Positions 3,598 to 32,000 of a stretch of DNA of 32,000 nucleotides are shown piece after piece. Position 1 is the first letter of the stretch; the number at the start of each line of letters is the position of its first letter. Under the pieces are notes generated by a model. That model saw only the letters and a program-made list of their open reading frames with translations. It was not told the origin of the DNA and did no database searches. The translations under genes were made by a program, and so were the position numbers. Source of the stretch: Vibrio maritimus (GTDB lineage: Bacteria > Pseudomonadota > Gammaproteobacteria > Enterobacterales > Vibrionaceae); assembly GCF_021441885.1 (NCBI RefSeq), contig NZ_CP090438.1:1803730-1835729 (forward strand). Direction: 5' to 3'.

Positions 3598-3625
3598 ATT
3601 TAACATAAGATAGATAATACGCACT
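3598..3625. other. dif: dif-type XerC/XerD recombination site, chromosome/prophage hybrid (left junction of the array)
   Basis: ATTTAACATAA-GATAGA-TAATACGCACT. The XerD arm is 11/11 to the remembered TTATGTTAAAT arm of E. coli and V. cholerae dif. The XerC arm is 10/11 to V. cholerae dif1 (AGTGCGCATTA). Identity with the later units begins at 3612, inside the 6-nt core. Confidence 0.8.
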
Positions 3626-3644
3626 AAATCTGTAAGCGCAAAGT

Positions 3645-5162
3645 TGTAATGTCACTATTTACCAAAGTTAAAATGTCTCTTTAGCTCGTGGTCACTAAGC
3701 TTTACTTACAACCAGCTAAGGATGCGTTTAAGATGCTAGTGACTATGAATGATTCTGATATCAATCGTTTTAAAGTAATCCAAGATGTTTGCGATCGTAG
3801 GATCCGACGAGTCGACGCGGCAGACATCCTTGATTTGAGTGTTCGCCAAGTTCAGAGGCTTATGAATCGCCTGAGGGAATTCGGTGCTGTAGGATTGACT
3901 CACCAAGCTCGAGGTAAGCCAAGTAATAACCGCTATCCTAGTGACTACCGAGACACAGTTTTAAAACTGATTCGTGATCACTATTCTGATTTTTCTCCAA
4001 CGCTTGCTAGAGAAAAACTATTGGAGTTACATAGCCTTCCAGTATCTAACGAGACCTTACGAAGTTGGATGATTGCAGATGGTTTATGGACGCCACATTC
4101 GCAACGCAAGCCTAAAGTTTACCAACCTCGCTACCGACGTGATTGTTTGGGCGAGCTCGTTCAAATTGATGGCTCTCACCATGATTGGTTTGAAGGACGC
4201 GCTGACAAATGTTGTTTACTGGTCTTTATCGATGATGCGACTGGCCGCCTGATGAATTTAAGGTTCAGCGAAACCGAATCGGCCTTTGATTACATGCTAA
4301 CAACGAGAGAATATCTTAATGAACACGGCAAACCCGTAGCGTTCTACAGCGATAAGCATTCGATTTTTCGGGTGAATCAGGAAAAGCAAAAACAAGTCGG
4401 TCAAACTCAATATGCCCGTGTATTAAAAGAGTTAGGTATTGAACTGATATGTGCGAACAGCTCTCAAGCTAAAGGTCGTGTGGAGCGAGTAAACTTGACG
4501 CTACAAGACCGACTCGTCAAAGAGATGCGCTTACAAGGAATTAACACCATCGAAGAAGCGAATGCTTGGCTTCCCTACTTCATTGCCGATTTCAATCGAC
4601 GCTTTGCTAAGCCGGCAATGTATCCGAAAAACATGCATCGAAAAGTGCGTGAAACCACACAGGAACTCGACGATATTTTCAGTTGGCAAGAAATACGTAA
4701 ACTCTCTAAATCGTTGACATTTCAATATGACAAAGTGGTTTATCTTATTGAGCCAAATGAAGAAAATACTCGCTTAGTTCACGAGCATGTCAAAGTCTTA
4801 GACTATCCCAACGGAGACATTGCGATTGTGTATGGCCACAGAAAGTTGGAATTCAAAATTTTCGATAAGCTTGAGCATGTTCAACAAACCCAAATTGTCG
4901 ACAACAAGCGATTAGGTCAAGTACTAAAGTTTGCTCAACAGCAGCAAGAAGAATTCGAGCGACAACAGAAACGCACACGGAGCAAAAAAGCCCCTAAACG
5001 CAGAGCTCAACAAAGAGCGCTTCAGGAACAACTAAGGGCTATAAACCCAGTTCTCATCACACCAGAAACCTTCAAAGCATCTAAGAGTAAAACCTAACTC
5101 ACCTACTCTATTTAGCTCATAAAGAGACATTTCTACCTGGGAGAAAAGAGGACATTTTAAAA
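3645..5162 (+). mobile_element. ISNCY-like (IS1202-group-like) insertion sequence, ends approximate
   Basis: A single DDE transposase gene is flanked by inverted motifs. A perfect 12-bp pair AATGTCTCTTTA (3672-3683) / TAAAGAGACATT (5120-5131) is flanked by an imperfect outer pair AATGTCACTATT (3648-3659) / AAAGAGGACATT (5145-5156). No target-site duplication could be identified. Confidence 0.7.
3688..5097 (+). CDS. DDE (rve/integrase-core) transposase, ISNCY-like
   Basis: N-terminal HTH (SVRQVQRLMNRL). Candidate catalytic residues lie in VQIDGSHH, AFYSDKHS and AKGRVERVN. The C-terminus is basic. The track start is GTG; ATG at 3733 (AAGGA upstream) or 3745 (MNDSD) is a more likely start. Confidence 0.85.
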   Translation: MVTKLYLQPAKDAFKMLVTMNDSDINRFKVIQDVCDRRIRRVDAADILDLSVRQVQRLMNRLREFGAVGLTHQARGKPSNNRYPSDYRDTVLKLIRDHYSDFSPTLAREKLLELHSLPVSNETLRSWMIADGLWTPHSQRKPKVYQPRYRRDCLGELVQIDGSHHDWFEGRADKCCLLVFIDDATGRLMNLRFSETESAFDYMLTTREYLNEHGKPVAFYSDKHSIFRVNQEKQKQVGQTQYARVLKELGIELICANSSQAKGRVERVNLTLQDRLVKEMRLQGINTIEEANAWLPYFIADFNRRFAKPAMYPKNMHRKVRETTQELDDIFSWQEIRKLSKSLTFQYDKVVYLIEPNEENTRLVHEHVKVLDYPNGDIAIVYGHRKLEFKIFDKLEHVQQTQIVDNKRLGQVLKFAQQQQEEFERQQKRTRSKKAPKRRAQQRALQEQLRAINPVLITPETFKASKSKT

Positions 5163-5310
5163 TGGGATTGACAAAATCGAATTTATCCAAAACAGCATTT
5201 TATCCTGTGGTTATCCCGTCAAACTTCACAAAATCCACTATCGAGACCCAAACCGGTCATGACTTTATACTGCCACCTCCGCTCTCAATGCGAAAAACTT
5301 AGCACAAAAT

Positions 5311-5348
5311 AAAATGACATACCAATCGACTCAGTATGTCATTTTTTT
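5311..5348. terminator. Bidirectional rho-independent terminator (end of phage cargo operon; also faces the IS)
   Basis: AAAATGACATAC (5311-5322) pairs with GTATGTCATTTT (5334-5345) around an 11-nt loop. A T7 run follows on the plus strand and TTTTATTTT on the minus strand. It lies 24 nt beyond the stop of the 169-aa gene. Confidence 0.75.
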
Positions 5349-5371
5349 ACTCTGTCCATTCTTTACAACGG

Positions 5372-5881
5372 TTACGGCTCGTCCAGTAACCCAAGCTTTT
5401 TAGCCACCTTTATTAGGTCGAATGGCTGTTGAAATTGAGCTTGTATCTTTTGCACTTCCAAAATGTCGAGTCCTGAAATTTCCGAACTATAATCCACGTT
5501 TTCAACAAGATTGAGACTACTTCGAATTTCATCCAAAGTCATACCATTAGGGTATTCTTCAGATCGAATGGTTATCTGTGGGTATTGGTCTAAAATCTCA
5601 ACCACTTTCAAACGTTCTTGTTCCGAGCACTTTTCTCTATTGTCCAAAGAAAGATATAGAAGCACCTTTTTTTTATCGTCATTTCCTAATGATGAAAACC
5701 AGCTTGTAGTTGGAAATCTTTTTGAAGCCGCTCTTGATTGAAGTAAACAATACTCAACTCGATTACCATAAGCTTGCATAGCATCAGACAAAGCTAAAGA
5801 ACGTAACTCATTAGAGCCAGCATAAGAAAAAGGTAAGAAACACATTAAAAATAAGCAGGTTAAACCTTTACAAAGCCGCAT
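5372..5881 (-). CDS. Secreted 169-aa cargo protein, function unknown
   Basis: The N-terminal signal peptide is MRLCKGLTCLFLMCFLPFSYA/GS. GGAGG lies upstream. It overlaps the 113-aa gene by 14 nt and is the last gene before the terminator. I recognise no family. Confidence 0.75.
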   Translation of the reverse strand: MRLCKGLTCLFLMCFLPFSYAGSNELRSLALSDAMQAYGNRVEYCLLQSRAASKRFPTTSWFSSLGNDDKKKVLLYLSLDNREKCSEQERLKVVEILDQYPQITIRSEEYPNGMTLDEIRSSLNLVENVDYSSEISGLDILEVQKIQAQFQQPFDLIKVAKKLGLLDEP

Positions 5882-6209
5882 TTGATACGCACCTCCAAAA
5901 TTCGCCCTCAGCAGTATAACTACCAGTTCTTAAGCTCATGGTTTCCGCAATAGAAAATACACGCCCTTTTGCAGTTTTATTAATAGCGTTCAGAGTTTTA
6001 CTAAACTCAACCCAATCATAGCCAGCTATACTCAGCATGGTTTGACTCGTATTTGCTTTACCAAGAAACAAATCAAACAATGGAACGGTGCTCGTTGCAA
6101 CTGCTAGCATGTTCGCCCTATCTACGATATCTCTAATCTCATCAACTGCCTCTATACTTTCACGAGACAATTTTAAATTATCAATCCGACAATACCCTAC
6201 ATTTGCCAT
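5868..6209 (-). CDS. 113-aa soluble cargo protein, function unknown
   Basis: ATG start with AAGGG 8-9 nt upstream. No TM segment or signal peptide. It is probably translationally coupled to the 169-aa gene. I recognise no family. Confidence 0.7.
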   Translation of the reverse strand: MANVGYCRIDNLKLSRESIEAVDEIRDIVDRANMLAVATSTVPLFDLFLGKANTSQTMLSIAGYDWVEFSKTLNAINKTAKGRVFSIAETMSLRTGSYTAEGEFWRCVSNAAL

Positions 6210-6258
6210 TTATTAAGCCCTTATGAAACCAATATAGTATCGTAAATCTTACTATACA

Positions 6259-30920: not shown

Positions 30921-30995
30921 GAAAGCTAATCCACAAAATCAAGGCAACCACCCCGCAAGCGGGGCCCCCTCCTTTAATTTTGTGGATTAGCTTTC
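30921..30995. other. 75-nt compound hairpin (copy 3)
   Basis: Copy 1 +18702. Confidence 0.6.
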
Positions 30996-31210
30996 TTAAC
31001 TGAAAAATCGACGGGTTGCAGTGGCAGAAATCGCCTCTTTCGTGGTGAGTCTCTGCAAGGCTGGCTTAACAGAAAGGAAGGGTATTTATTTTTTGTCTTT
31101 GAATGGAGATTGGCTTCGGGCGTTTGGAGGAGTCATACCCAAGAACTACAACAAGCGCCCTTTTATCGCTGCGCGATGAAGTTAGATTTAGGGTTCAACT
31201 GCTTTCTTAG

Positions 31211-31459
31211 TTAAATGATAGGCCTAAAACGAATTACATGATTATCTCGAATTGTAATCGTTTCACCTCTGCGATTCTCACTCAATTTTTCTTTTCTGGT
31301 TTTTGCCAAGAAATCACCAAGCTCTGAAATCTCGATAAATTCACGATCTAACAAAGCCCTGGCCATTTCATCAAAAGTTACTTCAAAAAGAACAGAAATG
31401 CTCTTTTGGTCTAAGTCGTACTTAGTTGAAATTCTTGAGATTAATTCAGTTTTGTTCAT
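31211..31459 (-). CDS. HU/IHF-like DNA-binding protein (copy 3)
   Basis: Translation identical to copy 1. Confidence 0.65.
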   Translation of the reverse strand: MNKTELISRISTKYDLDQKSISVLFEVTFDEMARALLDREFIEISELGDFLAKTRKEKLSENRRGETITIRDNHVIRFRPII

Positions 31460-31513
31460 TGTGGCTTACCTCATTCACATAAGAATAACTACAATACCAC
31501 ACCGTCATAACTT

Positions 31514-31541
31514 AATGCGCATTATCGAAATTATGTTACGG
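31514..31541 (+). other. dif-like site 1 of attP (copy 3)
   Basis: Copy 1 +18702. Confidence 0.7.
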
Positions 31542-31645
31542 GCTAACCTTGTAAAACGATTCTCCCTCCTAGCATGCACGGCCTTGACAGACCGACATTG
31601 AGCAAGTCTATCGCCCACTTTTTACTGCTGTTAGGCAAAGCAAAC

Positions 31646-31678
31646 CCTCAACATAATTCCATGCAGATAATACGCACT
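31646..31678 (-). other. dif-like site 2 of attP (junction of units 3 and 4)
   Basis: Copy 1 +18702; checked base by base. Confidence 0.7.
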
Positions 31679-31697
31679 AAATCTGTAAGCGCAAAGT

Positions 31698-32000
31698 TGT
31701 AATGTCACTATTTACCAAAGTTAAAATGTCTCTTTAGCTCGTGGTCACTAAGCTTTACTTACAACCAGCTAAGGATGCGTTTAAGATGCTAGTGACTATG
31801 AATGATTCTGATATCAATCGTTTTAAAGTAATCCAAGATGTTTGCGATCGTAGGATCCGACGAGTCGACGCGGCAGACATCCTTGATTTGAGTGTTCGCC
31901 AAGTTCAGAGGCTTATGAATCGCCTGAGGGAATTCGGTGCTGTAGGATTGACTCACCAAGCTCGAGGTAAGCCAAGTAATAACCGCTATCCTAGTGACTA
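31698..32000 (+). mobile_element. ISNCY-like insertion sequence, copy 4 (left end only)
   Basis: Copy 1 +28053; truncated by the window end. Confidence 0.7.
31741..32000 (+). CDS. DDE transposase, ISNCY-like (copy 4, 5' fragment; continues beyond the window)
   Basis: Same sequence as 3688-3947. The frame is still open at the window end. Confidence 0.8.
   Translation, partial: MVTKLYLQPAKDAFKMLVTMNDSDINRFKVIQDVCDRRIRRVDAADILDLSVRQVQRLMNRLREFGAVGLTHQARGKPSNNRYPSD

Follow-up and report, generated by a model that had tools for sequence, protein, structure and literature searches.

A dif-hunting insertion sequence within a tandemly repeated filamentous phage at a dif site of Vibrio maritimus

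A stretch of 32,000 nt of the Vibrio maritimus genome (NZ_CP090438.1 of assembly GCF_021441885.1, positions 1,803,730 to 1,835,729, forward strand; hereafter the window) carries head-to-tail copies of a unit that joins a filamentous phage (inovirus) to an insertion sequence (IS). How did this array arise at dif, and why does an IS stand so close to its unit boundary? The explanation that we favor, with good though incomplete confidence, is that a filamentous phage using XerC and XerD integrated at dif and forms a head-to-tail array of at least three copies, into which a dif-hunting IS of the IS1202 family had been built before the amplification. The array itself is an ordinary example of a well-documented phenomenon, because 12.6% of 688 Vibrio genomes hold Xer-exploiting phages in tandem arrays (PMC12715192) and near-identical copies are normal. 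The notable new part is a dif-hunting IS that is embedded in a CTX-type inovirus and co-amplified with the phage.

Self-comparison of the window gave a single strong offset of 9,351 bp. From 3612 to 32000, 19,038/19,038 comparable positions were identical at this offset, with zero mismatches. A reading of the same DNA made from the letters only (hereafter the sequence-only reading) had proposed three complete 9,351-bp units and the start of a fourth without differences, and this is exact to the base. The units are as follows.

3612-12962: unit 1, 9,351 bp, exact period-9,351 identity
12963-22313: unit 2, exact period-9,351 identity
22314-31664: unit 3, exact period-9,351 identity
31665-32000: unit 4, first 336 bp only, ending at the window edge

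The copy number is at least three, the array's right end and its chromosomal side lying beyond the window. Each unit is composed of a complete 7,803-bp inovirus and a 1,543-bp IS with a 5-bp target duplication, AAATC. Both the phage gene set and the IS ends were found, so the description of the unit as an inovirus plus an IS was sound. The DNA to the left of 3612 is unrelated to the unit and holds an adhesin gene, a terminator-like hairpin and an AT-rich spacer.

The position of the boundary is informative about the origin of the array. Three attachment sites have to be distinguished.

3598..3625, plus strand: attL, a canonical 28-bp dif; the repeat begins within its central region, at 3612
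12812..12839, minus strand: attP site A (attP2-like), AATGCGCATTA / TCGAAA / TTATGTTACGG, with a 6-bp centre, inverted relative to site B
12944..12976, plus strand: attP site B (attP1-like), which is the internal unit junction, CCTCAACATAA / TTCCATGCAGA (11 bp) / TAATACGCACT

The dif of the left junction consists of the XerD arm ATTTAACATAA (3598-3608), the centre GATAGA (3609-3614) and the XerC arm TAATACGCACT (3615-3625). The internal junctions have another XerD arm and another centre (12944-12976), and the part common to the chromosomal and the internal junctions is limited to the last three central nucleotides (AGA) and the XerC arm. Dif-like junctions therefore separate the head-to-tail units, and a hybrid dif bounds the array on the chromosome's left side. 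The Vibrio dif motif CATAA N6-12 TAATRYGHABY, taken from PMC12715192, has seven matches in the window against 0.01 expected by chance; they are the left junction and two sites per unit in three units. The 28-mer of the left junction is identical to the IS-adjacent dif of Vibrio sp. 10N.261.55.A7 (L021), and judged by its sequence it looks like a fully functional dif. The crossover position matches the place where XerC-catalysed exchange would fall under the mechanism described in PMC4246890. The sequence-only reading had placed the unit boundary in the dif core and not at the IS ends, and rightly so: the first base of the unit is 3612, next to the XerC arm, and the IS occupies 3631-5173. Duplication mediated by the IS was rejected, since the boundary does not lie at the IS ends.

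Could the array be produced by the assembly? One or two integrated copies together with abundant replicative-form or concatemer DNA might have been expanded into a repeat by a long-read assembler and then polished to identity. A perfect repeat of 28 kb is hard for ordinary reads to resolve, inoviruses keep multicopy replicative forms, and zero mismatches over 19,038 positions are also expected from consensus polishing. Arrays of 4-6 units are moreover scarce in curated data, making up 1-2% of arrays, whereas two-unit arrays account for 67% (PMC12715192). Such an artefact is nevertheless unlikely. The integration is real, because the chromosome-phage joint falls exactly in the dif core, and tandem arrays are common for this type of phage; of the inoviruses of the subtype without CtxAB and XafT (CTX-II), 95% belong to arrays (PMC12715192). 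A related array is likewise near-identical. In this array (L107; IMGVR_UViG_2916734906_000002, 1076-12775), where a related inovirus of 6,197 bp that has CTX-type double attachment sites is present twice in tandem, the copies differ by one mismatch in about 5.5 kb, and pII is 61% identical to that of the phage here. Near-zero divergence is therefore normal and little informative. Zero divergence was correctly described in the sequence-only reading, but its use there as evidence of recent amplification or homogenisation is weak, since the L107 copies are near-identical too and polishing homogenises repeats.

What kind of integration produced the boundary? Sites A and B are inverted and lie 104 nt apart, with central regions of 6 bp and 11 bp, respectively. 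The crossover in site B is at or after 12963, and junction identity starts at AGA, which adjoins the XerC arm. In silico, single-stranded DNA (ssDNA) of the coding sense folds in such a way that sites A and B are joined (-23.6 kcal/mol, versus -16.6 on the complement). In this fold the XerC arm pairs with the XerC arm and the XerD arm with the XerD arm, with a central bulge. By inspection, where the arms do not match, the coding-sense strand has G-T wobbles and the other strand has A-C mismatches. The same two-site layout with a spacing of 104-112 nt and the same strand asymmetry were found in 8/8 related attachment regions, which include those of Vibrio phage V5, a V. cyclitrophicus prophage, a Photobacterium prophage and three IMG/VR inoviruses. 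The attachment hairpin was judged by this conserved architecture and strand asymmetry instead of by covariation.

This organization resembles that of CTXphi, which forms arrays at dif1/dif2 of V. cholerae by XerCD-dependent integration without a phage integrase (Val 2005; Davis & Waldor 2000; PMC4246890). CTXphi also has two inverted dif-like sites with a long and a short centre, about 100 nt apart, that fold on the (+) strand. In CTXphi, attP1 has a 12-bp centre, attP2 has a centre of 5-7 bp, and the two are inverted and 90 bp apart (PMC4246890). The CTXphi sites are unusable as duplex and fold on the (+) strand, integration is irreversible, and phage DNA is made by rolling-circle replication across the tandem copies (PMC4246890). 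In the phage here, too, we found an inverted site pair, pairing on the coding strand and a junction on the XerC side of the centre. The crossover of both phages lies beside the XerC arm, and head-to-tail arrays may by analogy serve as rolling-circle templates here as they do for CTXphi. By the same analogy, site B with its 11-bp centre should be unusable as duplex DNA. The CTX route is favored because the observed crossover falls in this site with the 11-bp spacer. Catalysis by XerC only and irreversible integration would then be expected of this phage. The phage part has no secretin and no tyrosine or serine recombinase, the sole recombinase in the unit being the IS transposase. XerCD integration and the role of tandem copies as a rolling-circle template, both of which the sequence-only reading had put forward, thus gain in silico support from the CTXphi-type attachment region and the lack of a phage integrase.

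The phage could instead be of the VGJphi type, with reversible duplex integration; excision would then be possible, and tandem copies would be unnecessary for virions. VGJphi and the VGJphi-CTXphi hybrids are likewise Xer-exploiting Vibrio inoviruses at dif, and foreign DNA between adjacent elements can be co-packaged. The replication and structural genes of the phage here resemble those of the Vf33/Vf12 group, which is placed with the VGJ-type phages in PMC4246890. However, the attP of VGJ-type phages is a lone 29-bp duplex whose centre measures 7 bp, and no such architecture was seen at the boundary here. The crossover site has an 11-bp centre, an inverted partner 104 nt off and coding-strand pairing. 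We consider the VGJphi type improbable.

The CTXphi-type attachment region does not imply kinship with CTXphi. RstA with Rep_trans, RstB and RstR, which mark the CTXphi lineage, are absent, and the phage has an initiator of the G2P/Phage_CRI type and a pV-type ssDNA-binding protein. The Photobacterium locus L047, by contrast, carries Rep_trans and CTX_RstB. As far as its gene sequences tell, the phage is CTX-like in its attachment site only and lies outside the CTXphi lineage. It also differs from CTXphi in having no ctxAB, in carrying an HU-like gene and two orphan open reading frames (ORFs), in its host Vibrio maritimus and in the presence of the IS in each copy.

The second part of the question concerns the IS. 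Its features are as follows.

3631..5173, plus strand: IS1202-family IS of the ISAba32 subgroup, 1,543 bp, with TGT...ACA ends; also at +9,351 and +18,702
3626..3630, plus strand: left AAATC copy of the target duplication, which fills the 5 bp separating the XerC arm from the IS
5174..5178, plus strand: right AAATC copy of the target duplication
3745..5097, plus strand: transposase gene, 450 amino acids (NCBI annotation), with alternative starts at 3733 and 3688

The transposase matches NCBIfam NF033594 (transpos_ISNCY_2) at 4.9e-153, with 509.6 bits versus a cutoff of 250, and contains HTH_28 and HTH_32 domains and a weak rve match. It shares 49% identity with the transposase of ISKpn21 and 55-57% with ISNCY-family transposases on Acinetobacter plasmids. 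The terminal inverted repeats are imperfect (14/24 end bases match), and an AATGTC motif occurs at about nt 19 and at nt 43-44 from each IS end. Stand-alone contigs of 1,543 bp in other assemblies encode a 99%-identical transposase. In its transposase, size, ends, internal repeats, 5-bp duplication and placement at the XerC arm, the element agrees with the ISAba32 subgroup of the IS1202 family. ISAjo2, ISAba32, ISAba71 and ISKpn21 likewise are about 1.5 kb long, encode a transposase of about 450 amino acids, end in TGT...ACA, carry a second internal binding repeat per end, generate a 5-bp duplication and have their left end 5 bp from a XerC arm (PMC10132070; bioRxiv 10.1101/2022.12.17.520857).

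IS1202-family dif hunters have been known since 2023; the left end of ISAba32-subgroup elements lies 5-6 bp from the XerC arm in a fixed orientation (PMC10132070; bioRxiv 10.1101/2022.12.17.520857). In the window, exactly 5 bp separate the last base of the XerC arm (3625) from the first base of the IS (3631), and the orientation is that of the subgroup. The order XerC arm, 5 bp, TGT was found in 9/9 independent phage or IMG/VR loci, and their 5-mers are all different. Among 87 genome loci with enough upstream sequence, 37 gave a strict match to a full dif-like site; the spacer is 5 bp in 35 of these 37 and 6 bp in two. About 0.1 loci would be expected by chance, given a probability of 0.0012 per locus for an 11-mer with at most three mismatches. 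Many of the non-matching loci have an IS stacked on an IS, a degenerate XerD arm or the dif variant of another bacterial group. This 5-bp rule agrees with the published one (PMC10132070; bioRxiv 10.1101/2022.12.17.520857). The IS stands near the unit boundary because a dif-targeting IS chose its target, not by coincidence. Its position is thus not incidental, a point that the sequence-only reading did not make.

Dif-adjacent IS of this subgroup are widespread in Vibrionaceae. Copies that are 98-99% identical to the IS occupy three different contexts in V. campbellii, V. owensii and V. parahaemolyticus, and such near-identity across species suggests recent mobility and, indirectly, an element that may be active in transposition. 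One 98%-identical copy (L001; Logan SRR6325281 contig 54, 63-1638) lies 5 bp from a chromosomal dif, ATTTAACATAA CACATA TAATGCGCACT, and its other flank consists of the ordinary chromosomal genes matP, lon and fabA. The 5-mer GAAGG of this copy is absent at the right end of the IS, where GTAAT is found instead. One flank was therefore exchanged or deleted after insertion. Among the surveyed IS copies that could be tested, 23/36 have no detectable target duplication.

Two IS1202-family copies stacked head to tail were seen at six loci (L017, L034, L035, L036, L038 and L064; about 8,400-12,200 in each). The second IS begins 5 bp past the ...ACA end of the first, as in GACA-GAGGT-TGTAGCC. These pairs fit repeated targeting of one Xer site, as is known for ISKpn21.

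A transposase gene next to the boundary of an integrated phage might also be the phage's own domesticated DDE integrase, and the array would then result from its activity. Selfish and domesticated transposases are indistinguishable by sequence alone (Roux et al., PMC6813254), and a homolog has been named the transposase of the filamentous phage in PMC11630473, which implies the same assumption for V. cyclitrophicus prophages. The gene in the window, however, lies within a discrete element of 1,543 bp with TGT...ACA inverted ends and a 5-bp duplication, and the unit boundary falls within the dif core, at a distance of 19 bp from the IS end. The same IS stands beside a chromosomal dif with ordinary genes on its other flank (L001) and outside the right junction of unrelated phages. 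We rejected the transposase as a phage integrase on its inverted ends, the target duplication and the independent occurrences, and regard this idea as very improbable. On the same grounds, the sequence features identify the IS as an autonomous element that targets dif.

The target duplication also tells where the IS entered. The original sequence was TAATACGCACT-AAATC-GAATTTATCC, which belongs to the phage and immediately follows the XerC arm of site B. This point is non-coding, 3 nt past the base of the folded stem, with a terminator-like hairpin downstream of it. At this non-coding position off the stem, the insertion has left the attachment structure and all phage genes intact. Since the IS is present in every unit, its insertion most likely preceded the amplification, and the 9.35-kb composite of phage and IS appears to have been copied as one entity since then.

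Several observations weigh against our explanation. An IS-free copy of the phage was not found, either as an empty-site pattern in viral contigs or in a large protein search. At every other surveyed locus that allowed a judgement, the IS or what remains of it is not part of the phage but stands on the chromosomal XerC side; carriage of the IS inside a phage is a single case so far. The copy number of the array could be an assembly estimate. The attachment hairpin has little true covariation, since its arms, which differ little from phage to phage, are constrained by Xer binding. Finally, the replication proteins are of the Ff/Vf33 type and not RstA/RstB, and this group includes VGJ-type phages (PMC4246890). 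As to the composite itself, the joint of the IS right end with the phage was not found in viral contigs, the phage sequence beside the insertion site was not found in metagenome contigs, and no other tandem repeat of a phage plus an IS was found by self-comparison of about 100 fetched loci.

The cases with the IS outside the phage are V. cyclitrophicus PE002 and PE002B and Photobacterium L047. L047 (Photobacterium frigidiphilum NZ_PYMJ01000031.1, 431-9300) is a CTX-lineage inovirus with Rep_trans RstA, RstB and Zot and has the same two-site attachment region. The phage is followed by GGGCT, by an IS of the same family with a matching 5-bp duplication and then by chromosomal genes. It is the second case of an IS abutting a CTX-type junction, and the IS there is outside the phage. 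In V. cyclitrophicus, the "transposase" of the deposited prophage belongs to the same IS family and is set off by 5 bp from the XerC arm of the right junction, on its outer side. In one record (L002; PQ189335.1, 1-1070) the IS is cut by the record end, and in the other (L113; PQ189298.1, 7221-7665) an N-terminal remnant is left. Because the IS is outside the right junction, these V. cyclitrophicus prophage records include chromosomal IS sequence. The homologous gene has been called the transposase of the filamentous phage, and other phages were reported to be inserted between this gene and the rest of the prophage (PMC11630473). Both are accounted for by an IS that stands beyond the right junction. 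The V. cyclitrophicus prophages (PMC11630473; PQ189335, PQ189298) and the array here share the IS family (75% nucleotide identity), the 5-bp spacing from the XerC arm and integration of inoviruses at dif. They differ in that the IS or remnant of V. cyclitrophicus is single and outside the right junction, whereas the one here is within the repeated unit and has a target duplication.

How would the array have grown? In the route that we favor, coding-sense ssDNA as packaged would fold the inverted sites into a forked stem that mimics a XerCD site. XerC would swap a single pair of strands at the edge of its arm, leaving it to replication to finish the integration. Because the left junction is again a perfect dif, more copies could integrate and the array could grow from the left. 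The internal junctions have 11-bp spacers, which would be poor Xer substrates, so they are expected to be stable. The right end of the array would read CCTCAACATAA, TTCCATGC, about 3 nt and the chromosomal XerC arm.

A real array may also have formed by another route, either by unequal sister-chromatid or RecA recombination after one or two integrations or by integration of a multimer in one step. All routes yield identical internal junctions and the sequence does not separate them, and homologous recombination between 9.35-kb repeats is expected to be frequent. On the other hand, the left junction is a fully canonical dif able to take further integrations, and it is by sequential integration that arrays of this kind are documented to arise (PMC12715192, PMC4246890). 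We take these other routes to be a serious but rather unlikely alternative to sequential integration.

After integration by the CTX-type route, the prophage would be unable to excise, and virion DNA would be made by pII-initiated rolling-circle replication from one origin to the next. In the window, replication would proceed leftwards, in the sense of the genes, from an origin region at about 12130-12500 + n x 9,351. It would run through the genes from pII up to zot, then across the IS, the junction and site A, and stop at the origin of the left neighbor. N units would give N-1 templates, with exactly one IS per product. Virion production from the array may thus be supposed by analogy with CTXphi. 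Capture of chromosomal DNA by read-through was rejected: replication heads to the XerD side, whereas the IS sits on the XerC side between clean copies of its target duplication.

In this scheme the IS entered 5 bp beyond the XerC arm of the attachment site of the phage, giving rise to the two AAATC copies. Since it lies between consecutive origins, the IS would be in every rolling-circle product, and would therefore be packageable, exportable and deliverable to the dif of a new host. This raises the tentative idea, which we think possible but somewhat less than evenly balanced, that a dif-hunting IS rides the filamentous phage as its vehicle, is packaged in virions and delivered to the dif of a new host, and hops onward from there. 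If true, this would explain the 98-99% identical IS copies across Vibrio species and the recurrent 'transposases' at the edges of Vibrio filamentous prophages.

The phage part of the unit is an inovirus. On the minus strand of each unit the gene set is complete, with pII, pV, pVIII, a pIII-like protein, pVI and pI/Zot, and the Zot ATPase, the rolling-circle initiator, the ssDNA-binding protein, the major and minor coat proteins, the single orientation and the size of 7,803 bp place the phage among inoviruses. The features of unit 1 and of the left flank are listed below.

15..3389, plus strand: cadherin/Ig-repeat adhesin gene of the left flank, outside the repeat (Pfam Cadherin_5 1e-144, Big_9, Cadherin_4)
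5372..5881, minus strand: uncharacterised ORF, 169 amino acids, in cargo position downstream of zot (27% homolog in L009)
5868..6209, minus strand: uncharacterised ORF, 113 amino acids, in cargo position (37% homolog beside pI in L009)
6415..7590, minus strand: pI/Zot assembly ATPase (Pfam Zot 7e-32; phrog_197 1e-75)
7601..7930, minus strand: pVI-like minor coat protein (phrog_306 2.8e-11; DUF2523)
7920..9614, minus strand: pIII-like receptor-binding minor coat protein, 564 amino acids (gene order; phrog_31956 4.7e-25; 55% homolog in L105)
9722..9934, minus strand: pVIII major coat protein (phrog_6548 2.4e-19)
9947..10183, minus strand: conserved small inovirus protein (phrog_2924 2.8e-20)
10193..10480, minus strand: pV ssDNA-binding protein (Pfam Phage_DNA_bind 1.3e-14)
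10490..11812, minus strand: pII rolling-circle initiator, G2P type (Pfam Phage_CRI 1.5e-53, G2P_X_C 1.1e-15)
11940..12125, plus strand: small protein, 61 amino acids, divergent from pII (phrog_2503 1.1e-20, a family with no assigned function)
12208..12304, minus strand: long intergenic hairpin (inverted repeat; region fold)
12509..12757, minus strand: HU/IHF-like DNA-binding protein (Pfam Bac_DNA_binding 5.9e-15), also at +9351 and +18702

The chromosomal-side neighbor of dif is thus a large surface adhesin of at least 1,124 amino acids, the 5' end of its gene lying beyond the window. No Rfam match was found in the left flank and the unit. The pIII-like assignment comes from gene order, the gene lying between those of the coat protein and pVI. 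By its position, the divergent 61-amino-acid protein is a candidate repressor. The intergenic hairpin is near-perfect, with a 19-bp stem, more inner stem segments and a GC-rich tip, and the surrounding 381 nt (12130-12510) fold at -53 kcal/mol (z = -3.5 versus shuffled sequences). This hairpin probably serves as a packaging signal or as a replication or complementary-strand origin.

The phage backbone has no close nucleotide relative among 50,697 phage records; nucleotide matches to these records cover no more than a short piece of zot and about 150 bp in the attachment region. Protein-level relatives are present in IMG/VR, with identities of up to 77% for pII and up to 80% for pI. The two ORFs in cargo position (169 and 113 amino acids) stand where related phages have their cargo genes, and they have no Pfam, PHROG or PADLOC match. 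Weak homologs of both adjoin pI in one IMG/VR inovirus (L009, 6811-7585), and in a search of 5.8 billion proteins the only relative of the 169-amino-acid ORF was an identical V. maritimus protein.

The HU-like gene lies between the attachment site and the intergenic hairpin. Its product has no homolog in any deposited filamentous phage and no PADLOC match, and its relatives among the 5.8 billion proteins are an identical V. maritimus protein and one 71% homolog only, which sits in a plasmid-like context with ParA, ArdC and a topoisomerase. The replication nick of CTXphi and VGJphi requires host HU (PMC4439123). A phage-supplied HU might therefore serve replication, which is speculative.

How does the composite stand among known systems? 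The arrays of CTX-II and CTX-I phages described in PMC12715192 are likewise formed by dif-integrated inoviruses without CtxAB or XafT that end near zot, and the dif motif of that study finds every junction here. PMC12715192 mentions no transposases or IS elements, and the at least three identical units in the window belong to the upper tail of its distribution. Published ISAba32-subgroup elements are on plasmids of Acinetobacter, Klebsiella and Burkholderia and at chromosomal dif sites, and the main texts of PMC10132070 and bioRxiv 10.1101/2022.12.17.520857 mention neither Vibrio members of the subgroup nor a phage target. The target here is, in contrast, a phage attachment site, and the IS is replicated as a part of the phage. 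Within an incomplete coverage of the literature, we found no report of an ISAba32-subgroup IS inside a filamentous phage genome or in Vibrio, and no paper that combines Xer-exploiting Vibrio phages with dif-hunting IS.

In conclusion, this composite links the Xer-exploiting filamentous phages of Vibrio with the IS1202-family dif hunters, which are known mainly from plasmids of Acinetobacter and Klebsiella; the literature covered here keeps the two subjects apart. For annotation, it means that the 'phage transposase' of Vibrio inovirus records is an independent IS marking the XerC side of a dif-like site, and recognising the IS as such improves the calling of prophage borders. If the IS travels in virions, filamentous phages would be a horizontal route for a site-specific IS.

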